Shown here piece after piece: positions 1 to 52,991 of a DNA stretch of 64,000 bases. The DNA lies in the NCBI GenBank assembly GCA_021513695.1, contig CP084166.1, forward strand, positions 1,600,001-1,664,000, given 5' to 3'. A program made the translations under genes and the position numbers. The stretch's first letter is position 1; each line of letters begins with the position of its first letter. The notes below the pieces were generated by a model, which saw nothing but the letters and a program-made list of their open reading frames with translations, had not been told where the DNA came from and searched no databases. This DNA comes from Candidatus Heimdallarchaeum aukensis. GTDB taxonomy: Archaea > Asgardarchaeota > Heimdallarchaeia > Heimdallarchaeales > Heimdallarchaeaceae.

Positions 1-867
1 AGCAAGTCTACTTTCTGGCAACATTTTTCCAAAGAGAGTGAAACAGTGTGTCATTTCTTCCCAAATATCTAGCTCCACATTTACACCTTGTTCTAGTGCT
101 TTTTTTGCGAATCTTATTGAATCATCGAGTAAAATTTCAGAGGTTCCAACTTGGATAAATATTGAAGGTAGACCACGAAGGTCACCAAACAAAGGGGACA
201 CTAAGGGGTTTCTAGGATTTTGTCCTTGTAGATACATTTCGGCGGCAAATTCTAGATTCTTTTTTGATAACTGGGGATCTTCATCTTCTTTAGTAAGAAC
301 TGATTCACCAGATAAGGTTAAGTCAGTCCAGGGAGAGATACATATTCCTGCCCTAGGAAGAGGTTTTCTTAATGATTTCAAGTTGAGCATTGTAGATAGT
401 GTCAATCCTCCTCCTGCAGAGTCACCCATTATGATTACTTTTTTTGGGTTAAGTTCCAGATCGCCTATCAAGTTCAAATATGCTTTTGTTGCATCTTCAA
501 GAGCTGCAGGAAAAGGAAATTCTGGAGCTAAACGATAATCAAGAAGTAGTACTTGCGTTTCAGTTATCAGTGAAAATCTTCCTGCAAAAGCTCTATGCGT
601 TTTTGGAGATCCAATTACATATGCTCCCCCATGTAAATATAAAATAGTATATTCAGATTTCATGTAACCGATCTTTGTTGGATATAACCATTCTGCATTT
701 AAATTATTTATTTCAGTTTTTTCAACAGTTATTGCTTTTGGTACTTTTAAAATAGAAAGAGTTCTCTCTAAAATGTGCCTTTTTCTTTCTACACTCCTGT
801 CTCCAGTAGATTTTACGGGCAGAGAACGTAAAAGATTTAACAAAATTTTTGCTTTACGACTAACCAC
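1..867 (-). CDS. alpha/beta-hydrolase esterase/lipase (HSL family), C-terminus runs off the window start
   Basis: Reverse-strand translation of 1-867 gives ...MKSEYTILYLHGGAYVIGSPKTH...IMGDSAGGGLT...NVELDIWEEMTHCF..., i.e. the HGG oxyanion motif, the GDSAGG nucleophile elbow and a C-terminal His block typical of hormone-sensitive-lipase-type carboxylesterases. No ATG lies upstream of the MKSEY Met in frame, so the start is probably GTG near 867 or TTG near 843. This ORF is not in the supplied track because it has no stop inside the window. The + strand ORF 38-538 is its antisense shadow. Confidence 0.7.
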   Translation of the reverse strand, partial: MVSRKAKILLNLLRSLPVKSTGDRSVERKRHILERTLSILKVPKAITVEKTEINNLNAEWLYPTKIGYMKSEYTILYLHGGAYVIGSPKTHRAFAGRFSLITETQVLLLDYRLAPEFPFPAALEDATKAYLNLIGDLELNPKKVIIMGDSAGGGLTLSTMLNLKSLRKPLPRAGICISPWTDLTLSGESVLTKEDEDPQLSKKNLEFAAEMYLQGQNPRNPLVSPLFGDLRGLPSIFIQVGTSEILLDDSIRFAKKALEQGVNVELDIWEEMTHCFTLFGKMLPESRLA

Positions 868-1173
868 AATAACAAAGAATTACTACATAAAACATAAATG
901 TTTTCTTTGGACATGATTTACTTTTTTCCGTAAGTTTTTCGCACTCGGTCTTTCAAGAGAGAAAAACAATAAAATAGCTTAATCGCTTGGTAACTCAACC
1001 TAAACATACAATGAATGGGAGTGGTTGAGACAGACATCATACACGAATCGTGGGAATCATAAAGAAGAAAGGAAGAAAAAAGTAAAACCTTTTTTCTTTT
1101 TTCCTTCACTCCACGAGAGACAAAAAAGAAAGACTAACTCTAACACAAGAGGATAGAATTAGTTTCTTTTCGT

Positions 1174-2628
1174 CTACTGGGGCTGCAACCAATGGCTGAG
1201 CCCTCGGCAAACAGTGAAATGAGTGAGACTGAATTTCTGACCAGTGAGGTAATCAGTAATGGTGTTACATCGAGGACGGAAAAGATATCCAAGGAACTTA
1301 CGAGCGATATTCATTCCCCTTGTTAGATCAGAATGAAAAGTGTAGTTACAGGAAGAACAATGAACTAACCCTCTAACGGGACGGGAAACTTTCCTCCCGC
1401 AACGAGCACAGTGAGAAGATGTCCCTCTTTCCTCTATTGTTAATATTCGGTGAGATTCAAAGCCTCGAAGTATAAGTGCCCGACGGAGAAGAGAGAGAAC
1501 AAGAGAAAAATTCCACTGATGAAGTTTTCTGCGAAACTTACGATTACTTTTTTCTTTTTCTTTTCCTTCTCGAACATGTTTGGGGTAACCTACAACAACG
1601 AAAAGGTCATACACTTGTGCATAACTCTCTATCGTCTGCACAACATCGCTTATAAATTGGTGAATATACGCGCGTTTAACGTTTCTATACCTCCGACGAA
1701 GAAGACCAAGAAAACGGTAAACTTGGTGCTTTTTACCTAACTGGTCGTTTAAAGCTGCTTTCCTCTGAAGACGGGAAAGTTTGAGTTTATATCTATGATT
1801 GATTCTATTCCACTGTTTAGTATACCAGAATTTTATCTCTTTTTTTGTTAACTTCTTTTTAGGAGTCAGTAACACTCCTGCAGCAGGAATGTTTATCCCT
1901 AGATCTATTCCCAGCACAGCTGGGGGAAGAGAAGAAGAATTATCTCCTTGACTTGTGAGATAAAAGGAAGAAGGAGGAAGAACTTTTAATTGGAAATACA
2001 CCCACCATTCACGTGTAGAACGTTTGTATCTTAGTTCTAGACTTTTCACCCTCCCTTTCTTTAACTCTTTCTGGTGAAAATCGCTCATCTCTAAAGGTAA
2101 CCACAACTTCTGATGATAAGGTGTCTTTCTCTTCCAGGTATCTAACGAGTCTCTTATTCCTACCCACCAACGAGTAAGTGTATTATTCTTCTCTTTTGGT
2201 AGATGGACAAGAATGAACCTTTTTCCATTAATTAATTGCCTTCTTGCTCTCTTTATTGGAGGACGAGTAGGACGGGGTCTATACCCTTGTTCATATAATT
2301 GTACAGCTATATCTCTACACTCTTGGAATTCATTGTGAGAACAATAGGGAAACATTTTCTTCAAGTCGTGAGGAACAGTCTTTCTCCTCTCTTCTTCTTT
2401 TACTCTTGAAGTAGTCAGTGTCAACTCGTCTAATTTTCCTCTATGTACTCTTATTTTCCCTTTTTTTGTTCTTATACTTATTTTTCTTCTGTTGTGGTGT
2501 ATAATTCTCACATATTTTTCTATTATTCTCGTGTCTCTCCCCGTTATTCTCCTTAATCTTTCCTTTTTTCTCGTCGTCAATACCTCATTCTTTATTCTCA
2601 CTTTTAATGTTTTGACGACGTCCTCCAT
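1174..2628 (-). CDS. tnpB: TnpB-like RuvC/zinc-finger nuclease (OrfB of IS605 family)
   Basis: A RuvC-I-like LGIDLGI motif is present. The C-terminal zinc finger reads HCARCG...CSSCNYTFHSDLTRGMNIA (CxxC...CxxC followed by the HSD RuvC-III block). The N-terminus is basic and the protein is 484 aa. Confidence 0.8.
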   Translation of the reverse strand: MEDVVKTLKVRIKNEVLTTRKKERLRRITGRDTRIIEKYVRIIHHNRRKISIRTKKGKIRVHRGKLDELTLTTSRVKEEERRKTVPHDLKKMFPYCSHNEFQECRDIAVQLYEQGYRPRPTRPPIKRARRQLINGKRFILVHLPKEKNNTLTRWWVGIRDSLDTWKRKTPYHQKLWLPLEMSDFHQKELKKGRVKSLELRYKRSTREWWVYFQLKVLPPSSFYLTSQGDNSSSLPPAVLGIDLGINIPAAGVLLTPKKKLTKKEIKFWYTKQWNRINHRYKLKLSRLQRKAALNDQLGKKHQVYRFLGLLRRRYRNVKRAYIHQFISDVVQTIESYAQVYDLFVVVGYPKHVREGKEKEKSNRKFRRKLHQWNFSLVLSLLRRALILRGFESHRILTIEERGTSSHCARCGRKVSRPVRGLVHCSSCNYTFHSDLTRGMNIARKFLGYLFRPRCNTITDYLTGQKFSLTHFTVCRGLSHWLQPQ

Positions 2629-2639
2629 CTTTCTTTCCT

Positions 2640-2800
2640 CTTTTCTTATTCTAAACTTTTTTCTTCTCCTTTAATTATACTTTTTTTCCCTATAAAAATT
2701 CCTCACTTTTTCTTCTCTCCCTCCCTCTTCCTTCCTTCTTTCCTTTCTTTTTTCGTTGCACTCTTCCTCAATTTTTATAAATTTACGTAAAAAAGTAAGT
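2640..2800. repeat. pyrimidine-rich (CT) low-complexity tract with a CCTATAAAAA motif, upstream of tnpB-1
   Basis: The + strand here is runs of c/t, e.g. cttctctccctccctcttccttccttctttcctttctttttt. The architecture is similar to 31546-31640. Confidence 0.7.
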
Positions 2801-2947
2801 CATTTATTATGCTTTTCTTTAAAGTTTTTACAGTAAGTGCTGAATGTTTCTATTTCATTTATCCCTGAAAGAGGACAATAGTATAAAAAAGTGTAAAAAA
2901 CAATAATTAAGAAAATATTTATAGTTTAACAAAAATAAAAAACATCA

Positions 2948-3909: not shown

Positions 3910-5439
3910 GTGAAAGTTATGGAAGAATCTTCAAAAAAGCCAATCGCATTTATACCTACACCAAAAGAGATAGCTTCTCTAATGGTTTCTTTGATAACAA
4001 AATCTAAAACTGACAGTATATTAGATCCGGGTTGTGGAAAAGGTATTTTCATTGAATGTTTAAAGGAACAGAACTTCACTAACATAACAGGAGTAGAATT
4101 AAACAAAGAATTGTACAATTATTGTAAAAATAAATTCTCTCAAAATAATATAGTTAACCACGATTTTCTTGATTTGAGCGAAGATAACAAATTTGATGTA
4201 ATCATCGGTAACCCACCCTATACCCATTATAATTCTCTTCCTACAAGTATGAGAGAAAAAGTTTATTCAATTACAAAAACAAGAGAAACAGATATTTATT
4301 ATGCTTTTATCATAAAAGCTGTAAAATTATTGAAGGATGAAGGCGAACTTATTTTTATTGTACCATACAGTTTTTTTTATAATACATTTGCAAAAACAGT
4401 AAGAGAGATTCTTGCAGAAAATGGTTTTTTTGAGATAATAATAGATTTAGATGAAGTAAATTTATTTGAAGGAGAGTTACCAGAAACAATAATTTTTAAG
4501 TTTAAGAAGGTAAAGGAGAAAAGAGATACAGTTGTTCTAAAGATTAAAACAAGGTTAACAAAACCAGCACAAGTTGCTGAAAGAGCACTAGAGAGTTTAG
4601 AAAAAAGAAGAGAAAATGAACTTTTTTCCTATTTCATAAAAAAATTTGATTATAAAGCAGAAACATGGTCAACTTTTCCAGATATTGAAGTCAGTTTTTT
4701 TAACAGACTATCAGAATTAGCTTTTGTTGGAGTTGGAATGGTTTCAGGCTATGATAAAGTCTTTAGACTAGAAGAAAAAACAATTAAATTACTAAACGAT
4801 GAAGAACAAAAAAGAGTTTTTCCATTTGTAAAAGGGGAAAACTGTAAGGGATATTTTATTCAAGGTTGCGTATATTATTTCCTACTAGATAATAACATAA
4901 AATCAGAGGAAGAACTATGTAAAAAATACCCCAATTTTTATTCTATGATTTTGTCTTCTAAAGAAAAAATGATTAAAAGGTATTTACCAAAAAACGGCAA
5001 ATGGTTTCATTGGCAAGCTCTTAGAAATTATGAAACATACAGAAAGAGGTTAGATGCTCCCAAGATTTTTGTTCCTACATTGGATAGAAGTAAGATAAAC
5101 CGTTTCAGCCTTACCTATGAAAAATTGTTTCCTTCAGGAGATGTTATTACAATCATTCCTTACAAAGATGTTGATCCCTTCTTCCTTCTAGGTTATTTGA
5201 ATAGTGACTTCTTTAGGAGATATTATTTTTCATATGGAGGAAAAAGAGGAAACAGAGTTTCGTATACACAACGATTATTATCTAACGCTAAAATACCCAA
5301 ATTTTCTGAGAAAATAAAAAAAATAATTTCATCTGAAGCCAAAAAGATCTTTAATCAAAAGTCATTTCAAAATTGTAGGGAAAAGATAGAAAGAACCATA
5401 CTCAAATCTTTCGAGGAAAATCTTTTTGATTCAGTATAG
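3910..5439 (+). CDS. N6-adenine-specific DNA methyltransferase, gamma class (M.TaqI/Eco57I-like) with a C-terminal target-recognition domain
   Basis: Motif X-like IPTPKEIASLMV is followed by motif I DPGCGKGIF and then motif IV GNPPY. This order is typical of gamma-class amino-MTases. The protein is 509 aa. Confidence 0.8.
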   Translation: MKVMEESSKKPIAFIPTPKEIASLMVSLITKSKTDSILDPGCGKGIFIECLKEQNFTNITGVELNKELYNYCKNKFSQNNIVNHDFLDLSEDNKFDVIIGNPPYTHYNSLPTSMREKVYSITKTRETDIYYAFIIKAVKLLKDEGELIFIVPYSFFYNTFAKTVREILAENGFFEIIIDLDEVNLFEGELPETIIFKFKKVKEKRDTVVLKIKTRLTKPAQVAERALESLEKRRENELFSYFIKKFDYKAETWSTFPDIEVSFFNRLSELAFVGVGMVSGYDKVFRLEEKTIKLLNDEEQKRVFPFVKGENCKGYFIQGCVYYFLLDNNIKSEEELCKKYPNFYSMILSSKEKMIKRYLPKNGKWFHWQALRNYETYRKRLDAPKIFVPTLDRSKINRFSLTYEKLFPSGDVITIIPYKDVDPFFLLGYLNSDFFRRYYFSYGGKRGNRVSYTQRLLSNAKIPKFSEKIKKIISSEAKKIFNQKSFQNCREKIERTILKSFEENLFDSV

Positions 5440-12867: not shown

Positions 12868-14004
12868 ATGGAAGAAATAGTATCTGATAAACCGTTGGTA
12901 ATAGACAACGGAACAGGATTCACAAAAAATGGATTCGCAGGAGAAGATCAACCAAGAAGTGTGTTCCCAACGCTAATAGGTTATCCAAAATACCAAATAA
13001 TAATGACTGATGTTGAACATTACGTAAGAGAATACTATATAGGAGAAGAAGCACTAAACTTGAGAGGAGTGCTCAAACTAGTATACCCAATAGAACATGG
13101 TCAAATAGGTGACTGGGACGCCATGGAAAGAATCTGGCATTACACCTTCTATAACGACCTTAGAGTTAATCCTAACGAGCATCCTATTTTGCTCACCGAA
13201 CCTCCTCTTAACAAGAATGTCAACAAGGAAAAGATGGCCGAATTAATGTTTGATACCTTTAATGTTCCTGCTATGTATATTAGCATGCAAGCTATTCTTT
13301 CGCTTTATGCTTCTGGTCGTACTACAGGTATTGTAGTCGACAGTGGTGATGGTGTTACACACATCGTTCCTGTTTACGAAGGTTTTGCAATTAGTCATGC
13401 TATTCGCAGAGCTGATATTGGTGGTCGTGATATTACTGACTATCTACGTCGTCTATTAAGACAAAGAGGATATTCCTTAACCAGCAGTGCAGAACGAGAA
13501 ATTGTTCGTGACATTAAGGAACGTCTTTGTTACGTAGCTTTAGATCCTGAAAAAGAACTCAAACTTGCTGAGAAAGTTTCTGGTATGGAAAAGACTTACA
13601 CCTTGCCAGATGGTGAAACTCTAAGCATTGGCGCTGAGCGCTTTATGGCTCCTGAATTGTTCTTCAATCCTGGTGCCATCGGTTCTGAAGAACTTCCTTT
13701 GGATGAACAGATCTATCAAGCTATCACTGATTGTGATGTCGATCTTCGTAGAGATCTTTATTCCAACATTGTTCTTTCTGGTGGATCCACCATGTTCCCA
13801 GGTTTGAAGGAGAGATTACACAAGGAACTTACTGAACTAGTCCCCGAAACTATGGAGGTTAAGATTATCGCTCCACCAGAACGTCGTTACAGTGTTTGGA
13901 TAGGAGGAAGCATCCTCAGTAGTCTTAAGACCTTTACCAAACTTTGGGTGACTAAGAAAGAGTATAAAGAAACTGGTCCTACCGCAGTTTATCGTTGTAT
14001 CTAA
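12868..14004 (+). CDS. actin (eukaryote-like, Asgard 'Lokiactin'-type)
   Basis: The protein aligns along its whole length to eukaryotic actin. Matching blocks include [84 protein letters not shown] and [19 protein letters not shown]. Confidence 0.95.
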
Positions 14005-14185: not shown

Positions 14186-15124
14186 TTGTTGGACGTCAAT
14201 TTACTCAGATCTTATTTATCTGAGCCTAACTATCGCGCTGTTTTATCGGAGATTATACATTCCCATCGTAGCCGTTCTATTGACGAACTTTCTTCTCTTT
14301 TTCCTTCTTTAACTAGTAACTACTCTTTAACTAAAATTTTGAAGAAGTTTGTAGATATAGGTATTATTAAAAGCAAGAAAATTTCCCTTGGTTCTCAAGA
14401 GCGTGAATTTTATTTTCCCAATCGGGAACTTTTACGAAGTAATTTTTATCAAGATTTGCTTTTAGAATATGAAGATCTAAATTATCCAGCCAAACTAGAT
14501 CTGGAATTTACTTATCTTTGGGAAGATTGGCCTCAGTGCCTTGTTGATAATGGTTCTTTAACCCTGTATATTGTCACCAGTACTTATTTACCTGAAAATG
14601 TAGATATTTCACACCTAACAAAGCTTCTTACTGTTTGGGCTTTAAAATATGCAAAACTATCTATTGAAAACATTCATATTTCTAATATTGTTGATATTAA
14701 AGCAACACCAGTTAAAACTAATAATCTAATAGTTATTGGTTCTGGAGAAGTCAACAAGGTTACTGCCGATATTTTATCTCTTTATGGTGACTCTTTACCT
14801 ATTCGTTTTCAATCTAAATCAATATATAGTTCCTTGACTTCCAAAAATTATTCTTCTACAAAAGGTTCTATTGTAGGTTTACTTCCAAATCCCTGGAATC
14901 CTAGCAAAATTGCTTTAATCTGTTCTAGTATGAGTTATTTTGGAACTAATATTTCACTTAAAGCTTTAATTGATGATCTTGATTCAATTATCCATCAAGA
15001 ACCCAGAATTTTATCTAATCACTCTGTTTATTCTGAAATCCCCATTCGTGTTCTTGCATCAGAAGAAAACAACAAGAATAAAGAAAAACTTGAAGGACTG
15101 AAATCTTACACTTTCAAAGAATGA
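14186..15124 (+). CDS. hypothetical protein, possible N-terminal winged-helix; TTG start
   Basis: This is a 312-aa ORF with no internal Met for about 250 residues. The N-terminal region (SIDELSSLFPSLTSNYSLTKILKKFVDIGIIKSKK) looks wHTH-like. No recognisable catalytic motifs. Confidence 0.35.
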   Translation: MLDVNLLRSYLSEPNYRAVLSEIIHSHRSRSIDELSSLFPSLTSNYSLTKILKKFVDIGIIKSKKISLGSQEREFYFPNRELLRSNFYQDLLLEYEDLNYPAKLDLEFTYLWEDWPQCLVDNGSLTLYIVTSTYLPENVDISHLTKLLTVWALKYAKLSIENIHISNIVDIKATPVKTNNLIVIGSGEVNKVTADILSLYGDSLPIRFQSKSIYSSLTSKNYSSTKGSIVGLLPNPWNPSKIALICSSMSYFGTNISLKALIDDLDSIIHQEPRILSNHSVYSEIPIRVLASEENNKNKEKLEGLKSYTFKE

Positions 15125-21139: not shown

Positions 21140-22558
21140 TTGTTAGTATTATCAAGTTGTCAATATTGTGGTAATAAAGCTCAATATTATTGTACAAATT
21201 GTGGAAAATTACTATGTTCAGAACATGCGACTGAAGCCCACACAGTCTACTATTGTAAAAACTGTGATTTAGAAGTGTATGAAAAGCAATGTCACAAGTG
21301 TGGAAACAAAACAGAATTTTCTAGAAATGATAATGTTCTCCTGTGCGAATGGTGCAAAACTCCTACAGTAGTAGATGGCTATGCCTATCATCAACAATTA
21401 CCTGAAAAAATATTTAGTTCAATACTTAGAATAAATAAAAAGATAGCTGATTTGCTTTACCTAACAGATAGATATCACAAATTAGTTGACGAAATTCTAA
21501 AAGTGCGATATGCTAAAATAAAATTATTTCCAGAAATTGAAGATGATCTCTCCATTCTAAGAACAAAAATAGACAACTTAATCAAAAAACTAAGAATCAT
21601 CAGTGATAGCTTATTTTTGAAAATAAACAAAAAGTTACAATCATTAAACTACCTTAGATCCCCAAACTTAAACAACCTTGAACCAGCTGAAGAATTAATC
21701 AATTATTTAGACAAAAACTATGAATCTTTAGGATATAGCTTACATTTAAAAATTGAGCAAATAGAAGAATACTTTGCCTCCATTGGCAAAAAAGTTGATT
21801 TTCTGAATTATCAATATACTCTTTTGAAGATAATATACCGACTTATTCCTGAAGTTGAAGGAGAGGAATTAATTGCTATCATTCCTAGAATGTGGATAAA
21901 AAAAAGTTATAAGCTCCCTAAGCGTCATGTTTTTGTTTTAACAAACAAGAACATCTACCTCTTAAGAGAAAAAGGCCTATTTCGTACAATGTTAAAATTA
22001 AAAGAGAAAATCGATCTCTCTAATGTAAGATTAGTTTCAGAATCCCAAACATTATTGAAAGGAAAGGTTGTAAAAATTTCAACATTACTTTCACAATATT
22101 CATTGTTTGGTAGAGATATAGCTATTTCAGAGTTATCAAAATATTTCAGTATCTATTATGAATACTTCAAATATTCTACAAGTGACCTCACAGTAATTAA
22201 TGAATTTAAATATTATAATTTATCTGTAAAAGATTTACGAGAAGCAATAAATAAATACCTCAACAACCTCCGTGTTTCTCTTCTTAAAAAGAGAGAAATA
22301 AAAAGAGAAATAATGTATAAAAATAGTTTAGTAGCAAGACGACAGCAGATATTACAACGATTAGCAAATATAAGACGTAAAATCCAAGAAATAACGCAAT
22401 CTAGAACAGGAAGATATCAAAGTCCTAAAGTTTTCAACAACCTGTTACAGAGACTTATGGAAGAGCAATCTCGTTTAGAAAAAGAAATAAGAATAAATGA
22501 CGCAAAAATCAGAGAGATAGATGAATTGTGGGGTGTTTTTTATGATCAAGTTTCTTAA
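21140..22558 (+). CDS. hypothetical protein with N-terminal B-box-like zinc fingers, a bPH-like segment and a C-terminal coiled coil
   Basis: The first finger reads CQYCGNKAQYYCTNCGKLLCSEHATEAH (C-x2-C-x7-C-x2-C-x4-C-x2-H-x4-H), and a second CxxC...CxxC...CxxC cluster follows. The mid-region HVFVLTNKNIYLLREKGLF...KIDLSNVRLVSESQTLLKGKV resembles bacterial PH (bPH_2) domains. The start is TTG. Confidence 0.4.
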   Translation: MLVLSSCQYCGNKAQYYCTNCGKLLCSEHATEAHTVYYCKNCDLEVYEKQCHKCGNKTEFSRNDNVLLCEWCKTPTVVDGYAYHQQLPEKIFSSILRINKKIADLLYLTDRYHKLVDEILKVRYAKIKLFPEIEDDLSILRTKIDNLIKKLRIISDSLFLKINKKLQSLNYLRSPNLNNLEPAEELINYLDKNYESLGYSLHLKIEQIEEYFASIGKKVDFLNYQYTLLKIIYRLIPEVEGEELIAIIPRMWIKKSYKLPKRHVFVLTNKNIYLLREKGLFRTMLKLKEKIDLSNVRLVSESQTLLKGKVVKISTLLSQYSLFGRDIAISELSKYFSIYYEYFKYSTSDLTVINEFKYYNLSVKDLREAINKYLNNLRVSLLKKREIKREIMYKNSLVARRQQILQRLANIRRKIQEITQSRTGRYQSPKVFNNLLQRLMEEQSRLEKEIRINDAKIREIDELWGVFYDQVS

Positions 22559-23913: not shown

Positions 23914-24846
23914 ATGAGTAACTTACCATTAGAATTTCCTTTGTATCTTAGTAATATTTCAGTAAAAGAAAAAGACACTCCAGAATTAGTTTTAACTTAT
24001 GAGGGAGATGAAACCCTTGTTGATAAATTGCTTCTAATTGGGAAGAATAATGGCTTACCTGACAACATTAATGCGGCCTTACCTTTTGAGCAAAAGAAAG
24101 TAAAAGGGAGAGTAGTTTTTGAGATTACTATCCCTATTTATGAGGACGGAGAATTTCAAGCTGTTGTGGAGTATGAAGACGAATATATTTATGAACCAGG
24201 GCAAGCTCATAATATAGTCTTTAGAGGTAAAGGTATTTTTTTGGATTTCAGAAAAATATTCCATCTTCAAAAAGAAGTTGTAAGACCAAAAGGAGCACCT
24301 AAACCTACCAAAAAAGAAACAGAACTCGAGGAAAAAATTGAAATTAAGAAAGAAGAGGATAAGCTTACTCCGTCTATTGAAAAGAAGAAAGATTTGACTC
24401 CTATTGCGGATAAAGATAACCTGCTAAAGGTTCAGCCTAAGGATTTTAGAAACTTTGATGAAAACCTTAAAACAAAACTTCTTCAGATATTGGATTATTT
24501 AGCAAATGAAAAAAGTAAAAAACTTGTTCTTGACACCATTATTCTGCCAGATATCTCTAGAACACTCAAAAGGCTAATTCTAGAAGAAATGAGGAAAAGC
24601 GTCTACGAAGCATGTTTTCCTGTAATTGTGTTGATCGAGAAGGCTCTGATATTAGGTGGTATGGTTTTTCAAGCTGTTTTTACTGATGAAACATTTGAAG
24701 AATATAAAAAAGAGGTTGTAGAAAAAATCCCAAAAATAAAAGAAAAAATCAATAGAATTGAGTTTGAACCCACAAATACTATGATAAAAGTAAAATACGA
24801 TAAAGACAAGCATTCATTTAAGAAAATGTTATATCATCAGATATAA
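23914..24846 (+). CDS. hypothetical protein
   Basis: This 310-aa ORF has a K/E-rich linker and no recognisable motifs. Confidence 0.35.
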   Translation: MSNLPLEFPLYLSNISVKEKDTPELVLTYEGDETLVDKLLLIGKNNGLPDNINAALPFEQKKVKGRVVFEITIPIYEDGEFQAVVEYEDEYIYEPGQAHNIVFRGKGIFLDFRKIFHLQKEVVRPKGAPKPTKKETELEEKIEIKKEEDKLTPSIEKKKDLTPIADKDNLLKVQPKDFRNFDENLKTKLLQILDYLANEKSKKLVLDTIILPDISRTLKRLILEEMRKSVYEACFPVIVLIEKALILGGMVFQAVFTDETFEEYKKEVVEKIPKIKEKINRIEFEPTNTMIKVKYDKDKHSFKKMLYHQI

Positions 24847-30246: not shown

Positions 30247-31545
30247 TCACGAAGGAGAGTTTAGATTAGGCGAACCGGTCATAGAGCCAGAGGAGAGAGT
30301 TGATAAACCCTCGACCACGGAAACTGGAAAAAAGAACTTTTTCCGCTCACGTGGGACAGGAAAATAAGAAAAAAAGGAAGAAGAGAGAGGGAGAGGAAGA
30401 GAACCAAAAAAGAGAAGAGAAAGGTTGCGAGAGGCGTTGCGGTCAGAGTGAACTTCAAAACCACAAGAAACGCAACGAAAAAGGTCACGAGTGACACGGG
30501 AGGAAGGAGAAACGTGACCGCAACGAGAGCAACGTTGACTGGTATAATGAGGGGGGACAGGAAGAACAGGAATATGCTTTTCTTCAGCAAGAGAGGTCAA
30601 GAAAGAGAGGAAAAAGCGATAAGACCAGCGGTTGAGAGAGCGACGAATACGTTCTCTTCCTCTAAAATTCTTTTTAGTCCATTTTTTTCTTATTTTACTA
30701 ATTTCTTCAATTACTATCGCAGAGCGTGTAACTACTGCTAAATCTACAATCTCGTGAGCTATTTGCTCACATCGGGTTTTGTTATAATTTTTTTCTTTAT
30801 TTTTCAATCTTTTTAACGCACGCCGTGCTTTTTCACTTCCTTTATCAGCATACGATTGTAGCTTTCTTCTTCTTTCATTAAACTTATGTTGTTTCCAGGC
30901 AAGATCTTTTCCGAGGTAACGTTCAATTAGAGTAAAAGAGGGATGATTAAGTGTTATTGCGGCAGCTATCTTTCTACCTACGTCTACTCCTATCGTTCCT
31001 TCTACTTGTTGAGGAGGAAAAAGGTTAAGTTCTTTACGTAAAATTATGTGCTCTACCCACTTTCTTTCCCGTTTAAAGACTTTACAACTATGCTCTTTCC
31101 ATCCTTCTCTGCGGTATGCTTCTACTCTTCTCCATCCTCCATCTAGTTTGATAGGTATAGCTATCCTTTCTTTCATCGGAGAAATAGCTAAAACAGGGTT
31201 CCCTCTCTCTGTTTCTTTTATTCCTCCACTCCTGGGAAAGTTGAACTCCAACGGTAAATTATCGAACTTTTTCACTTTCCTTGCCGCATAAACTCTTCTC
31301 TGTACCGCTTCTTGCACTTGACTGTGTAACTTCACATATTTGAACCTCTTATATACTAAATGATGGAACTCTTTTCCTGATTTCGCTTTTTCCTTGAACA
31401 CTATTATTTTATTTGCCATCTCTGTCGCTTTTTTCTGTGCTCTCTGCATGTATGCTCTTTTTCTTCTACTCGGGAGAATATTCACTTTTACTGTTTTTTC
31501 TTTCCACTTCCTTTTCTTTCCTTTTCTTCTCCCTTTCGTTTTCAT
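30247..31545 (-). CDS. tnpB: TnpB-like RuvC/zinc-finger nuclease
   Basis: RuvC-I reads IGVDVGRK and RuvC-II reads AIVIEEISK. The zinc finger reads CSRCGHVS...FRCVSCGFEVHSDRNASRNL. The K/R-rich N-terminus and low-complexity C-terminal tail probably reflect read-through of the low-complexity ends. Confidence 0.8.
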   Translation of the reverse strand: MKTKGRRKGKKRKWKEKTVKVNILPSRRKRAYMQRAQKKATEMANKIIVFKEKAKSGKEFHHLVYKRFKYVKLHSQVQEAVQRRVYAARKVKKFDNLPLEFNFPRSGGIKETERGNPVLAISPMKERIAIPIKLDGGWRRVEAYRREGWKEHSCKVFKRERKWVEHIILRKELNLFPPQQVEGTIGVDVGRKIAAAITLNHPSFTLIERYLGKDLAWKQHKFNERRRKLQSYADKGSEKARRALKRLKNKEKNYNKTRCEQIAHEIVDLAVVTRSAIVIEEISKIRKKWTKKNFRGRERIRRSLNRWSYRFFLSFLTSLAEEKHIPVLPVPPHYTSQRCSRCGHVSPSSRVTRDLFRCVSCGFEVHSDRNASRNLSLLFFGSLPLPLSSSFFSYFPVPRERKKFFFPVSVVEGLSTLSSGSMTGSPNLNSPS

Positions 31546-40304: not shown

Positions 40305-40964
40305 GTGTTTCTGGTTGTTATTGGTCTAATAACTCCACAAACTAAAAATTTAGTTTTTTACGAAAAAAGTATTTCATGGAGAAAAGATCCACTGTATCAA
40401 GAAGTGAAAAAGACTTTTATTTGGACTATACCTATATTACAACTTTATAACGTTTATCTTTTTGTATTTGCTTTTCGTACAGAATTAAAAGCAGATCAAT
40501 CTATTCCTTGTGTTATCGATATTTTAGTACTAATAACTTTAACTTCGTGGCAGCTCATTTCTGACATAAGCAAAAAGTTGAAGGAGAAAAAACTGATAGT
40601 TAACCAAAGAAAGTTGATACTTTACTTATATTTCATATATACAACAACTATATACAGCAACGTCATCACTTCATTCTTCGGAGAAACTGAGGTTTTTAAT
40701 TACTGGGTTGCAGTTTTTACAGGACTTGGTATAATAGTAACTTTTGTTAGTGTAACTAGAGAAATAGGAAGAAAATATGGAGCAATAAACGTTAATTTAT
40801 TTTCATTTATGTTTAACACAATCAAATATTCAAAAGAAATTAAAAAAGATAGCATAAACCTATGTTCAAATTGTAATTCCCCAATAAAAATATCTGACAA
40901 ATTTTGTGGTCATTGTGGTCTTAAACTAGAAAAGCATGTAGAAACTAATTCTTCTAATATATAA
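40305..40964 (+). CDS. membrane protein with C-terminal zinc-ribbon (GTG start)
   Basis: About 4 TM helices are followed by CSNCNSPIKISDKFCGHCGLKL (CxxC-x11-CxxC). Confidence 0.35.
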   Translation: MFLVVIGLITPQTKNLVFYEKSISWRKDPLYQEVKKTFIWTIPILQLYNVYLFVFAFRTELKADQSIPCVIDILVLITLTSWQLISDISKKLKEKKLIVNQRKLILYLYFIYTTTIYSNVITSFFGETEVFNYWVAVFTGLGIIVTFVSVTREIGRKYGAINVNLFSFMFNTIKYSKEIKKDSINLCSNCNSPIKISDKFCGHCGLKLEKHVETNSSNI

Positions 40965-42035: not shown

Positions 42036-43127
42036 ATGATATGGACATCATTAGTTTACATTACCTCTGCAATTTTCATCTTATTAATTGTAATTGTTAC
42101 AATGTTGAAATACAAATTCCAGATGTCTAGTCAAGCCTTTTATTATTTTCTTTCAATGTTGATTTTTTTGATTATATGGTTTATCACTGATTTGGGCTTA
42201 ATTATAGCAAGTAACTCAAGAGATTCCGATTCTGCTAGATTTTTTTCCAAATTAGGTACAACATTCAGCATGATCGCGATGATATCTGTAATTTTTTATA
42301 CACAATTTTTAACTTCTAAAGAGTTTTTCAACTCTCCACATATTGTTATTTCGTCGTTTTTACTTGGAGGTGTTATTGCCCTTACTTTGTCTCCTGTATA
42401 TGATGTCCAAGAAGCAATTGTAGATCCTACAAATATTTTTTATATTGCAAAAGTAAATACATCATGGTTTGTTTTTGATACAGCATTACCATTATACGCA
42501 GGTTGCTTGCTGATTTATTACTTAACTAGACAAAAAAAGATTGTTCCAGAGAGACATAATTCAGCTCTAAATTTGATGATCATTGGGACAATAATAGCTT
42601 TTTTTGGGACAATAACAATTTTTGTTTCTCGAAAGGTAGTATTCATTATTTTTAACAAAATTATTTTACTTCATGTTGAATTATTAGCTGTAGCTATTGG
42701 AGCAGTTATAATGCTTATAGCAACCATTCAAGGAGGAGTAAAAACTTTCTACTATTCATCCAAGATTCATTCACTCCATATTTATGATAATATGGGGATG
42801 GATATTTACACTGCCACTTTTGAAACAAAAAGAAACGTATCAACTGGATTTATACCTGGTGTAACAAGCGCCATTTCTGTTTTTGCTACAGATTTAATCG
42901 GCAAAGATGTGAAACCTAAAGAAATATCCTTTGGGGAGTATTCGTTAATGATTGAATCTTATGGAGAAATAAATTGTTTTGTTTGTGTTGAGTATCCAAC
43001 AATAAATTTCAGAAAAGGGATACAAAATTTAATCAAACAAATTAAAGTAAACCAGTCACATCAGGAAATTTCTGAATTGATAGAAGAAATTTTAGCAATT
43101 ACCCCGATTTACCAAAAAAAACTTTAG
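42036..43127 (+). CDS. polytopic membrane protein (about 7 TM) with a C-terminal soluble alpha/beta domain, hypothetical
   Basis: Hydrophobic helices run through about aa 230, followed by about 130 aa of soluble sequence with alternating beta/alpha pattern. Confidence 0.4.
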   Translation: MIWTSLVYITSAIFILLIVIVTMLKYKFQMSSQAFYYFLSMLIFLIIWFITDLGLIIASNSRDSDSARFFSKLGTTFSMIAMISVIFYTQFLTSKEFFNSPHIVISSFLLGGVIALTLSPVYDVQEAIVDPTNIFYIAKVNTSWFVFDTALPLYAGCLLIYYLTRQKKIVPERHNSALNLMIIGTIIAFFGTITIFVSRKVVFIIFNKIILLHVELLAVAIGAVIMLIATIQGGVKTFYYSSKIHSLHIYDNMGMDIYTATFETKRNVSTGFIPGVTSAISVFATDLIGKDVKPKEISFGEYSLMIESYGEINCFVCVEYPTINFRKGIQNLIKQIKVNQSHQEISELIEEILAITPIYQKKL

Positions 43128-48342: not shown

Positions 48343-49200
48343 ATGAGTATTCAAGTAACAAGTGTATATACAAACACAAAAGAACGCAACACTAACTTCA
48401 AAACTGGACACGGTCAGTCATTTTTTATTACAAACCTACAATCAGGTAAGAAAATTCTCTTTGATATTGGAACAAAAGGAGACGACGTTCTTTTTAATAT
48501 GAATCTTTTAGGTATTCACCCAGATGAAGTTGATTTAATTGCATTTTCTCATGGTCATTATGATCATACAAGAGGATTAGAAAGTTTTCTTAAAGTAAGA
48601 AAAAAAGAAATAACTATAATAGGGCATCCAAGCATTATTGAACCCAAAAAACTGAAATTTAAAAAATGGTTTTTCAACGTAAAAATTGATATTGGATTTC
48701 CCAAACTGAAATCATCTCTTAAAAAGAAAATAAAGTTCTTATTTCAAACAGAATTTTATGCAATAACAGACAACATTTTCCTTTCAGGAGAGATTATTAA
48801 TAGAAATGAAAAAGATGGAACAGAAGATAGGTTAATACATCATAATGGCAAAAAATGGGAAAGAGATCCTTTACAAGATGATCAATCACTTATTATTGAA
48901 ACAGATAAAGGACTAGTAATTATCTGTGGTTGTTGTCACTCAGGATTGTTAAATACACTAAACCATGTTAGTCAAACGTTTGAAAACAAAAATATCTATG
49001 CAGTTATCGGGGGAACCCACATGCTAAAATTTAATGAACATGAATTAGAACATATCAGCAAAGTTCTTGTTGAAAAATACAAAAAACCTATACTTTATTT
49101 GAACCATTGTACAGGTAATTTTGCTTTCGATTTCCTTCAGCAAAAACTTGGGAAGGAAACGGTAAAACCGTTCCATACAGGATATAAGCTCTCTTTTTAA
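48343..49200 (+). CDS. MBL-fold metallo-hydrolase
   Basis: The HxHxDH motif reads SHGHYDHTRG, and a later His/Asp motif reads CGCCHSG. Confidence 0.7.
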   Translation: MSIQVTSVYTNTKERNTNFKTGHGQSFFITNLQSGKKILFDIGTKGDDVLFNMNLLGIHPDEVDLIAFSHGHYDHTRGLESFLKVRKKEITIIGHPSIIEPKKLKFKKWFFNVKIDIGFPKLKSSLKKKIKFLFQTEFYAITDNIFLSGEIINRNEKDGTEDRLIHHNGKKWERDPLQDDQSLIIETDKGLVIICGCCHSGLLNTLNHVSQTFENKNIYAVIGGTHMLKFNEHELEHISKVLVEKYKKPILYLNHCTGNFAFDFLQQKLGKETVKPFHTGYKLSF

Positions 49201-49319: not shown

Positions 49320-49979
49320 ATGGTATGGAAAAACAAAAAGGATGAAAGAAACCCCAACTTTAGAGAGTTTCGTTCTGTTAGATATTATACCAATATAAAT
49401 GGTAAAGAAAATACTTATGGTTATGATTACACTATTGACGAAAATGGTAAAAAAATCTATAAAGAATATGGAGATCCATCAATGTTTAATTTAAGTGAAA
49501 ACATTGAAGAAAGAATTAGAGAGTTTGAAAATATGTTTAGTAACGAATTGAGAGTTGACAGATTTGGATTGTTGAACAGTATCTTTCCAAAATTAAGTAA
49601 TATGTTTGAAGAACACATCTCAAGTTTAGGATTACCTATGGCTTCAGAGCCAAGATCAATTGAGCCATTAGAAAATGATAAATCTAGTGGTAAGCAAGAA
49701 TTAAGTTATGATTTCCAAAAAGAAGGTGACAAGTTATATCTAATTATTGAACTTCCTGGATTTGGGAAAGAAGACCTTAAACTCAAGCTTAAAGACAATA
49801 AACTCTATCTAGTTGCAAAAAACAACAAGAAGGAAATAAGTACTGTAATTGACCTCAAATATAAAGTGAATAAAAAATCTAAAATCGATGCCACTATGCA
49901 AAATGGTATTCTCGAACTACAATTTGAACTAGATAAAGATGAAAAAAACGATGATGGATTAGACATCACCATCCACTAA
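49320..49979 (+). CDS. Hsp20/alpha-crystallin-domain protein with a roughly 120-aa N-terminal extension
   Basis: The C-terminal 90 aa fit the ACD pattern (YDFQKEGDKLYLIIELPGFGKEDLKLKLKDNKLYLVAKN...ATMQNGILELQFE). Confidence 0.5.
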   Translation: MVWKNKKDERNPNFREFRSVRYYTNINGKENTYGYDYTIDENGKKIYKEYGDPSMFNLSENIEERIREFENMFSNELRVDRFGLLNSIFPKLSNMFEEHISSLGLPMASEPRSIEPLENDKSSGKQELSYDFQKEGDKLYLIIELPGFGKEDLKLKLKDNKLYLVAKNNKKEISTVIDLKYKVNKKSKIDATMQNGILELQFELDKDEKNDDGLDITIH

Positions 49980-49996: not shown

Positions 49997-52237
<2,241 letters not shown>

Positions 52238-52259
52238 CCCATTTCTTTTTTTTCAGGAG

Positions 52260-52991
52260 ATGAGGATTATGGATGATGACGAAGAGATTATGGATATCGA
52301 AGAACTATTTGAAGTATTTAGTAACTCTACAAGGCGAAAGATTCTTGAACTACTATCGTCTGAAGCTCTATATCCTTTTCAAATTTCAAAAATCCTAGAA
52401 ATATCTCCAAGAATAATAGGAAAATATATTTCTGAACTTGAAGAATTAGGATTAGTAAAAACAATTGAAAAAAAGAGTGATAAAGGACCAGTAAGAAGGT
52501 ATGCACAGATAGACAAAACATTTTCTATTATGATTGACATCGGGCCTAACAATTTCTCTTGGAAAGTAGTTCCCATTGAGACAGAAACCAGTGATGAAGA
52601 GGTACAAACAACAGGAATTAGGAAAATTAGAGAAAGTGACATAAGAAGTATTGAAGAAGTTAAAAATTCGATTAAGAAAAAGGTTGCTGAAGTTGTAAAA
52701 ATAGATAATAAGAGAAAAGAATTAGTTGCAGACATAAATGAATGTTTTAAGATTTTTAATGACCTTTTAGAGAACACAATAGAAGAATATATTGATAGAG
52801 TTTATGTACGGACTTTGCTTCGAGAGATGGTAAACATGAAGCAAGAATGGATTTCTTCTAATCACTTATCGAACACTTTACGAGAGTGGAGAGGAGATAT
52901 TAGGAATAGGTTAATTAAACTAGCTGAAGAAACAGGAATTGTAAAGTATAAATTTGATAATCGAAAAAATGATTATTTATTTTCTATCTAA
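52260..52991 (+). CDS. ArsR-family winged-HTH transcriptional regulator with a C-terminal extension
   Basis: FEVFSNSTRRKILELLSSEALYPFQISKILEISPRIIGKYISELEELGLV is an ArsR/SmtB-type HTH. The probable start is MRIMDDDEE (ATG at 52260 or 52269) rather than the track's 52224. Confidence 0.6.
   Translation: MRIMDDDEEIMDIEELFEVFSNSTRRKILELLSSEALYPFQISKILEISPRIIGKYISELEELGLVKTIEKKSDKGPVRRYAQIDKTFSIMIDIGPNNFSWKVVPIETETSDEEVQTTGIRKIRESDIRSIEEVKNSIKKKVAEVVKIDNKRKELVADINECFKIFNDLLENTIEEYIDRVYVRTLLREMVNMKQEWISSNHLSNTLREWRGDIRNRLIKLAEETGIVKYKFDNRKNDYLFSI

Follow-up and report, generated by a model that had tools for sequence, protein, structure and literature searches.

The subject of this report is a stretch of 64,000 nucleotides from Candidatus Heimdallarchaeum aukensis (contig CP084166.1, positions 1,600,001 to 1,664,000), hereafter called the window, and in particular an element on its minus strand between positions 912 and 2804 that carries a single gene for a protein of the TnpB family. 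In our assessment this element is probably a non-autonomous transposon of Asgard archaea, which combines a TnpB of the type with an alternative catalytic glutamate (Ealt) with an omega RNA, and which is moved in trans via its inverted repeats at N-AT-N targets.

In the mechanism that we propose a transposase acting on double-stranded DNA would recognise the inverted repeats in trans and integrate the element into N-AT-N, preferably into the palindrome C-AT-G, and the central AT would then be present at both junctions. The preferred sub-model is a DDE-type cut-and-paste enzyme that would cause a 2-bp duplication, with a geometry like that of IS630 at CTAG/TA. The gene product would be an RNA-guided nuclease with its RuvC site in the predicted order D242, a glycine at the canonical position, E400 six residues before the zinc finger, and D434. 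The last approximately 50 nt of the open reading frame (ORF) together with a 262-nt tail most probably encode the scaffold of the omega RNA, in the same direction as tnpB, and the flanking DNA past the right end would supply the guide. By analogy with known TnpB systems, TnpB and omega RNA could cut the unoccupied allele by a (V)CATG-like motif, which might lead to retention or homing of the element.

The 484-aa ORF passes the Pfam cutoff for PF07282 (Cas12f1-like_TNB) with 27.5 bits against 26.3 at residues 394-441, and reaches 74.7 bits with the NCBIfam model guided_TnpB, which is under the cutoff of 100 bits. An AlphaFold2 model calculated from the 40-sequence family alignment has a predicted local distance difference test score (pLDDT) of 82.5. 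Foldseek related this model to AsCas12f (E 3e-14), ISFba1 TnpB (7e-12), ISDra2 TnpB (1e-10) and the mimivirus Fanzor2 (9b0l, 1.6e-10), with alignments that each span about 460-490 columns, and a profile of the family obtained E values of 1e-19 to 1e-16 against Cas12f and TnpB chains and of 2e-9 against Fanzor2 9b0l. The fold is TnpB-like, with a WED/REC lobe and a split RuvC domain into which a zinc finger is inserted. Judged from the modelled fold the ORF encodes a TnpB-family protein, as the initial annotation had already read it.

To describe the active site residue conservation was scored over 40 family members (Table 1). In profile alignments the glycine G347 takes the place of the catalytic glutamate of AsCas12f ('IQMEDL'), and E400 follows 53 residues downstream of this canonical position, directly after strand 395-399 of the AlphaFold2 model and just ahead of the zinc finger, in which C407, C410 and C424 are invariant and C427 is kept in at least 90% of the members. 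A glutamate shift of about 45-50 residues has been reported for Fanzors and TnpB2. The published Ealt expression, D{P}G x(120,160) E x6 CxxC x(12,18) CxxC x(4,8) D (PMC10711439), matches residues 242-434 of the window protein and 108 of the 111 family proteins; the RuvC-I motif of the family is D-L-G, and DPG occurs in 0 of the 111 members. Enzymes with the Ealt arrangement, namely ApmFanzor2 (E467) and TvTnpB, are active nucleases (PMC10711439, PMC10530073, PMC11832414, PMC10691335) with RNA-guided cleavage and without collateral activity, and a census of TnpBs from 2023 contains large clades rearranged from E to G, some of them restricted to archaea (PMC10691335). Because the arrangement is a known variant with active enzymes, the change from glutamate to glycine is no sign of inactivation. 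The active site is, by its sequence, of the rearranged Ealt/TnpB2 type, and the TnpB is presumably a working nuclease.

The ORF is intact in 9 of the 13 full-length copies of the element. The ratio of nonsynonymous to synonymous substitutions (dN/dS) among the intact copies is 0.11-0.22 with a median of 0.14, at dS values of up to 0.77, and is 0.11-0.14 between the window ORF and the intact copies. A ratio of about 0.14 means strong purifying selection on TnpB. At the place taken by the non-coding tail in the Heimdall elements, family members from Thorarchaeota possess a low-complexity, Ser/Lys-rich C-terminal extension of about 100 aa. One of them (L019, 6001-7740) lacks an intergenic tail altogether; this extension may represent an ORF call through the RNA-coding region.

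In the sister genome, Candidatus H. endolithica (CP084167.1), we found 12 full-length and 2 truncated copies, which have a block of 1.85 kb in common and no flanking sequence, and further copies are present in metagenomes. The initial annotation had suggested that additional copies would define the ends of the element, and this proved to be the case: similarity and the empty sites described below place them at 912 and 2804 instead of the 1100 and 2800 assumed before. The copies fall into two subfamilies, and nucleotide divergence reaches 20% among 13 of them. Protein relatives were found in Asgard archaea only (with Heimdall, Thor and Loki-group names), and from these sequences the family is to be regarded as endemic to Asgard archaea. 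The label “copy 1” given to the element at first has no counterpart within the 64-kb window, which contains no second copy at the nucleotide level; extra terminal repeats, solo ends or miniature inverted-repeat transposable elements were likewise found neither in the window nor in the fetched loci. The second TnpB of the window at 30247..31545 (-), a protein of 432 aa, is unrelated to the first: it shares 33% identity with the 484-aa TnpB over 69 aa only, possesses the canonical RuvC-II glutamate and passes the guided_TnpB cutoff with 129.8 bits. It adjoins the apgM phosphoglycerate mutase gene and, as in the first element, its GC content (39.8%) and its GC content at third codon positions (GC3, 0.32) are raised.

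Read in the direction of the gene, the element is laid out as flank, (C/A)ATG, T-rich repeat, purine tract, TTTATA box, tnpB, tail and flank. The TATA-like box TTTTTATAGGG is kept in all copies (alignment columns 297-310) and in the distant relative L016, and the 262-nt conserved non-coding tail terminates in AAAAGTAAAT-CATG. The inverted repeat formed by the left and the right end of the window copy has 19 of 22 matching bases; that of subfamily 2 is perfect over 18 of 18 bases and matches at 27 of 31 over its full length. The relative L016, with 43% protein identity, has a 31-nt inverted repeat of different internal sequence and the same CATG termini. As the repeats of L016 and of the window copy differ inside and share CATG, the two ends have changed together while the termini stayed fixed. 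A conserved subterminal single-stranded hairpin at both ends was not found, and the corresponding z-scores are non-significant in L011 and L016. Variability at positions 5-8 of the left end was considered as a mechanistic signal and discarded, being mostly ordinary divergence between the subfamilies. The purine-only tract (alignment columns 236-296) shows microsatellite-like length changes between copies and produces an extreme GC and AT strand skew at 2400-2800 of the window.

The ends can be read to the base from an empty site, which is present in four contigs of related strains. Here the esterase and dehydratase genes are directly adjacent, the dehydratase is 98% identical, and window position 911 is joined to 2805 with one CATT/AATG between them. 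The closest copy of the element (94% aa, 91% nt identity) lies at another locus in the same samples as the empty-site strains. The empty sites at this position and the closest copy elsewhere show that the insertion is polymorphic among close relatives. The empty site reads CATAATA-AATG-TCCAAAG and the occupied site CATAATA-AATG-[ACTTAC...GTAAAT]-CATG-TCCAAAG. A plain 4-bp target duplication was tried as an explanation and is ruled out, as the empty site has AATG but the right junction CATG. The C of the right junction belongs to the element because the target carries A there. Among 20 copies the 13 nt AAAAGTAAATCAT of the right end are invariant, and the final base is G in 16, A in 3 and C in 1, with the variants scattered on the element phylogeny; this scattered variation beside 13 invariant nt is what a target-derived last base of the right tetranucleotide would show. 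The sequences thus indicate an element of the form G-ATTTAC...GTAAAT-C and a target N-AT-N, the palindrome CATG being preferred, whose middle AT appears at both junctions. With (C/A)ATG at both junctions and a single AATG in the empty site, a matching motif occurs at the left end, the right end and the target. These junctions fit either a 2-bp duplication by a transposase binding the inverted repeats or a recombinase crossover at AT on a circle. In the left flanks of several of the loci L003, L008, L009, L011 and L012 the 12 nt 5' of CATG are A-rich (CGAAAAAAGAAA-CATG, AGAAAAAAGAAC-CATG) and resemble the right end of the element itself, AAAAAAGTAAAT-CATG, which suggests an extended target preference or insertion beside the remnants of old right ends.

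The tail is conserved to the same degree as the coding sequence, with pairwise identities of 0.75-0.93 compared to 0.62-0.75 at typical third codon positions. Over the final 60 nt of the ORF the third positions become more conserved, and the final 42 nt show next to no variation, third positions included. RNAalifold predicts 72 pairs from 15 copies, and 98.3% of the cells are paired compared to 39-51% if the partners are slid; five pairs show compensatory double changes, and many G-U pairs are valid on the gene strand only. The minimum free energy of the window sequence is -90 kcal/mol (z -5.4) on the gene strand compared to -78 kcal/mol (z -3.1) on the opposite strand. Four more copies from metagenomes add consistent one-sided changes in predicted pairs. 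The stretch 912-1225 on the gene strand is therefore likely to be the omega RNA, which would be read in the direction of tnpB. Strand and location at the 3' end agree with the initial annotation, which had placed the RNA at 1100-1400; the conserved region with RNA-like structure lies further out. An nhmmer profile of the tail found no match in the distant relatives, so that homology of the RNA is not demonstrable beyond about 80% nucleotide identity.

The right flanks are all different in 20 copies, and in the empty allele AATG is followed by the 20 nt that lie past the right end in the window (TCCAAAGAAAACATTTATGT). If the element behaves as TnpB systems do elsewhere, its guide would be taken from the DNA immediately 3' of the right end, beyond 912. 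The predicted guide segment overlaps the 5' leader of the esterase gene (window 860-911). In none of 15 sites is the left tetranucleotide preceded by T (P about 0.002), and the right end always reads T-CATG. Owing to this difference a target-adjacent motif (TAM) of the form V-CATG could tell the empty site from the right junction; under this hypothesis the nuclease would cut the empty allele and spare its own T-CATG right junction.

A number of observations weigh against the proposed mechanism. Neither in the element nor among the window ORFs of 150 aa or more did we find a transposase with matching ends; the lack of a TnpA stated by the initial annotation holds for any transposase gene within or next to the element, and the attribute “autonomous” is unsupported because no transposase is encoded. 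No transposase lies beside the truncated copies, which have ordinary chromosomal neighbours and no alternative cargo, or beside the three distant relatives for which the called neighbouring genes were inspected, and no sequence is common to the flanks of the H. endolithica copies. IS630/Tc1-mariner elements duplicate TA and, to our knowledge, are not known to duplicate AT, and from the junction sequences alone a 2-bp duplication is indistinguishable from a recombinase crossover at AT. Regarding the RNA, the count of five double-change pairs is not above a shuffle control (240/500), the covariation comes mostly from two subfamilies and so from few independent events, and the covariance-model search recommended at the outset gave no Rfam match to the region at gathering or permissive thresholds, with chance-level miRNA hits only. 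A metagenome scan with an invariant 21-mer of the tail returned four short contigs only, all of them ordinary copies, and no autonomous partner. In a scan of viral and mobile-genetic-element contigs for the terminal repeat 17 single hits were obtained; these are chance matches given that they have no TnpB or tail similarity. Eight ORFs of the window, 219-472 aa in length, have no Pfam match at E<=1e-8 (two have none at 1e-6), and it is possible that a novel transposase is among them (Table 1).

The same junctions could arise in other ways. A serine recombinase acting in trans, as in IS607, would cross over at the AT of a CATG or AATG target and would leave the roles of TnpB and omega RNA unchanged; a double-stranded circle would be excised, with the junction of right and left end forming the palindromic core CGCAAAAAGTAAAT-CATG-ATTTACTTTTTGCG. 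Crossover between matching short motifs at both ends and the target, as in IS607 (PMC10711439), fits the junctions, the abutted ends would make a perfect palindrome like a recombinase core site, Ealt-type TnpBs are often associated with IS607, and there are rearranged archaeal branches linked to serine recombinases (PMC10691335, PMC10711439). No serine recombinase was found in the element, among the window ORFs of 150 aa or more or beside any copy examined, however, and the core of IS607 is a non-palindromic GG (PMC10711439), compared to an AT here. A palindromic AT core would also give the reaction no polarity, and altogether we regard a recombinase as a possible but rather unlikely agent. 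Chen et al. 2018 reportedly found IS607-family elements to be without terminal inverted repeats, which counts in the same direction. The initial annotation had thought of an IS1341-type member of IS200/IS605, for which a Y1 (HUH) TnpA encoded elsewhere would process single-stranded DNA and insert it 3' of CATG without duplication. The sole gene is indeed tnpB, the left end is preceded by a conserved tetranucleotide and the right end followed by variable sequence, the single pair of empty and occupied sites is formally compatible with insertion 3' of AATG, and the Ealt enzyme TvTnpB has been reported with an IS605 TnpA. We consider this assignment improbable nonetheless: the element terminates in true inverted repeats of 22-31 nt (in subfamily 2, at 18/18, they are not palindromic hairpins), subterminal hairpins conserved at both ends are missing as described above for L011 and L016, the junctions indicate a central AT that is shared or duplicated, and beside 13 invariant nt the right end finishes in a base whose variation does not follow the element phylogeny, which would be unexpected for a Y1 cleavage site borne by the element.

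Two further explanations concern the state and the origin of the element. A domesticated or decaying, immobile TnpB, possibly a nuclease-dead RNA-guided regulator that was inactivated by loss of the RuvC-II glutamate, would account for the glycine at the canonical position in all members, the weak NCBIfam and Pfam scores and the ORF disruption in 4 of 13 copies in the sister genome. It is hardly credible in view of an invariant alternative glutamate exactly at the published Ealt position of active enzymes, of strong purifying selection, and of a multicopy family whose inverted repeats are intact and whose presence at a site differs between close strains. As to origin, the GC content was at first given as about 45%, against about 30% in the surrounding genes. 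We find 37.5% for the element and 39.0% for the tnpB ORF at a window mean of 32.5%; values of 44-45% are confined to the stretch at about 1200-1500. The GC3 of the ORF is 0.33, compared to 0.20-0.24 in neighbouring host genes. The excess is real but modest, being matched or exceeded by 47 of 1,243 equal-sized windows, and an actin-like ORF of the host reaches 40%. The initial annotation had left the choice between recent horizontal acquisition and compositional constraint. Recent acquisition from a GC-richer donor could produce these differences in GC and GC3, and we judge it very unlikely: all 13 copies from two genomes, with up to 20% nucleotide divergence, show the same excess, each copy in other genomes lies 5-9 points above its own flanks, and all detectable relatives are from Asgard archaea. 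Given the same excess in every copy and the endemism of the family, compositional constraint, such as a structured RNA and an Arg/Gly-rich protein impose, fits better than recent import.

Table 1. Position of the element, its parts and other ORFs in the 64-kb window.
Feature	Position	Strand	Remark
Whole element	912..2804	-	1,893 bp including both terminal tetranucleotides; similarity among 13 full-length copies begins and ends here
Target tetranucleotide AATG kept at left junction (CATT on + strand)	2801..2804	-	from comparison of empty and occupied site
Left-end inverted repeat	2783..2804	-	AATG ACTTAC TTTTTT ACGTAA; first A, possibly AAT, target-derived
Right-end inverted repeat	912..933	-	...TTACGGAAAAAAGTAAAT CATG
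Terminal repeat pattern	both ends		CATGATTTACTTTTT[T]NCG and complement
Purine-rich GGAA/GAGA tract between left repeat and TATA box	2699..2775	-	length varies among copies
TATA-like box TTTTTATAGGG, archaeal type; putative promoter	2688..2698	-	about 60-70 nt upstream of ATG
tnpB ORF, 484 aa, intact	1174..2628	-	sole ORF within element
D242, RuvC-I aspartate (GIDLG)	1903..1905	-	invariant in 40 members; codon checked
G347 at canonical RuvC-II glutamate position	1588..1590	-	invariant glycine
E400, predicted alternative catalytic glutamate (Ealt)	1429..1431	-	invariant; six residues before C407xxC410
CCCC zinc finger C407, C410, C424, C427	1348..1410	-	region of Pfam PF07282 match
D434, RuvC-III aspartate (HSDLTRGMNIA)	1327..1329	-	invariant; codon checked
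Candidate omega (right-end) RNA scaffold	912..1225	-	about 310 nt: last ~50 nt of ORF and 262-nt tail
Predicted guide segment, flanking DNA TCCAAAGAAAACATTTATGT	892..911	-	by analogy with TnpB systems
ORFs without Pfam match	14186-15124, 21140-22558, 23914-24846, 40305-40964		
ORFs without Pfam match, continued	42036-43127, 48343-49200, 49320-49979, 52224-52991		

The neighbours of the element are an esterase (alpha/beta-hydrolase) and a pyridoxal-phosphate-dependent threonine/serine dehydratase, which bears out the position given to it at first. The esterase has the same orientation as tnpB, and its start codon, a GTG at about 872 (-) assigned by homology to the gene call on the syntenic contig L020, lies about 40 nt past the right end of the element. 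With the insertion just upstream the esterase is cut off from most of its native upstream region, and its expression may now rely on an outward promoter or on read-through. The dehydratase is followed directly by an Eco57I/TaqI-like N6-adenine DNA methyltransferase of 509 aa (3910-5439, +), which has no obvious restriction partner among the adjacent ORFs and is kept in the empty-site strains. An actin-family protein (12868-14004, +; GC 40%), matching crenactin, MamK and 'syringactin' models, and a CDC48 AAA ATPase (50009-52237, +) are typical eukaryote-like genes of Asgard archaea. Positions 1-1202 of L020 hold a fusion of ubiquitin-conjugating, Vps23 and Vps28 parts and an Arf-family GTPase. 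In the contig index the dehydratase is on record at 100% identity, as that of the closed genome of Candidatus H. aukensis; the exact TnpB of the window and the protein P0007 named for H. aukensis are absent, which suggests that the deposited annotation places start codons elsewhere or flags pseudogenes.

Elements with tnpB as the only gene are very common, and in this respect the finding as first stated is ordinary. The 484-aa protein is, on the other hand, a compact candidate for an RNA-guided nuclease with a rearranged site, and the tested enzymes of that arrangement lack collateral cleavage. Well-defined ends, a putative scaffold and the prediction of a V-CATG TAM make the family suited to functional mining. 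As near-identical strains differ in the presence of the insertion, and as enrichment cultures and closed genomes exist, TnpB-assisted maintenance of a transposon becomes testable in an Asgard archaeon. The architecture of the ends departs from both families that normally carry TnpB, and adds a clean case for the movement of TnpB between unrelated transposition systems, a process invoked for the origin of Fanzor. One may go further and propose a hitherto undescribed class of archaeal cut-and-paste-type transposons, with inverted repeats, CATG insertion, AT duplication, an Ealt TnpB as sole cargo and possibly a new transposase, as a counterpart or ancestor-relative of the eukaryotic inverted-repeat transposons that carry Fanzor. 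If true, such a class would lie in the archaeal lineage closest to eukaryotes. We give this proposal little credence. The census already reports TnpBs with symmetrical ends linked to DDE transposases as well as solo copies with such ends (PMC10691335), and the element is therefore best assigned to an already known kind.

Set beside systems already described, the element would function as a TnpB/omega-RNA transposon of the Ealt/TnpB2 class. It shares with the IS1341 group of IS200/IS605 the single tnpB, the motif 5' of the left end, the variable DNA 3' of the right end and the presence of several copies per genome. Unlike that group it has terminal inverted repeats instead of subterminal hairpins, and its junctions fit a Y1 insertion 3' of a motif poorly. 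The aCas1-associated groups (Cas1H-Asgard-1 and -2, PNAS 2023) likewise comprise an Asgard-specific TnpB lineage flanked by repeats. In contrast to them no Cas1 was found beside the three distant relatives that were read or among the window ORFs of at least 150 aa, and the downstream hypervariable region with GTTCACTCA is absent, the motif not being found at up to 1 mismatch.

The Ealt arrangement is also that of Fanzor2 and of the “pro-Fanzor” TnpBs of IS607 (ApmFanzor2, PDB 9b0l; ISXfa1), and some Fanzors reside in transposons with inverted repeats and short duplications as well. The RuvC-I motif of the family is D-L-G instead of the D-P-G that defines these proteins, its profile is nearer to Cas12f and TnpB structures than to Fanzor2, and the element lacks a serine recombinase, a GG core and an N-terminal extension resembling a nuclear localization signal. 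With regard to the ends, the census links TnpBs with symmetrical ends to DDE transposases, for example in the IS630-linked DDE-6 branch, and describes solo TnpB copies that share their ends with transposase-bearing elements (PMC10691335). Our element agrees with such DDE-associated elements in that inverted terminal repeats flank tnpB and in that no more than about 260 bp separate the 3' end of tnpB from the end of the transposon. The target of IS630 is CTAG, of which TA is duplicated. A palindromic tetranucleotide target with the central dinucleotide at both junctions is thus common to both, whereas the dinucleotide is AT and not TA as in IS630/Tc1-mariner, the terminal sequence (G)ATTTAC differs from the Tc1/IS630 termini, and no DDE gene was found among the window ORFs of the length given above.

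In the protein there is agreement with the Ealt, “TnpB2” or RIIr TnpBs, such as TvTnpB of Thermoplasma volcanium (PMC10530073, PMC10691335, PMC10711439). The present family differs from them in being restricted to Asgard archaea, very divergent and under the NCBIfam cutoff for TnpB, and TvTnpB occurs with an IS605 TnpA and asymmetric ends, unlike the inverted-repeat ends without TnpA described here. Common to both are the glycine at the RuvC-II position, the alternative glutamate six residues upstream of the first CxxC, the order D...Ealt...CCCC...D, the compact size (484 aa here) and, on the 3' side, a long conserved non-coding stretch at most about 260 nt from where the transposon ends.

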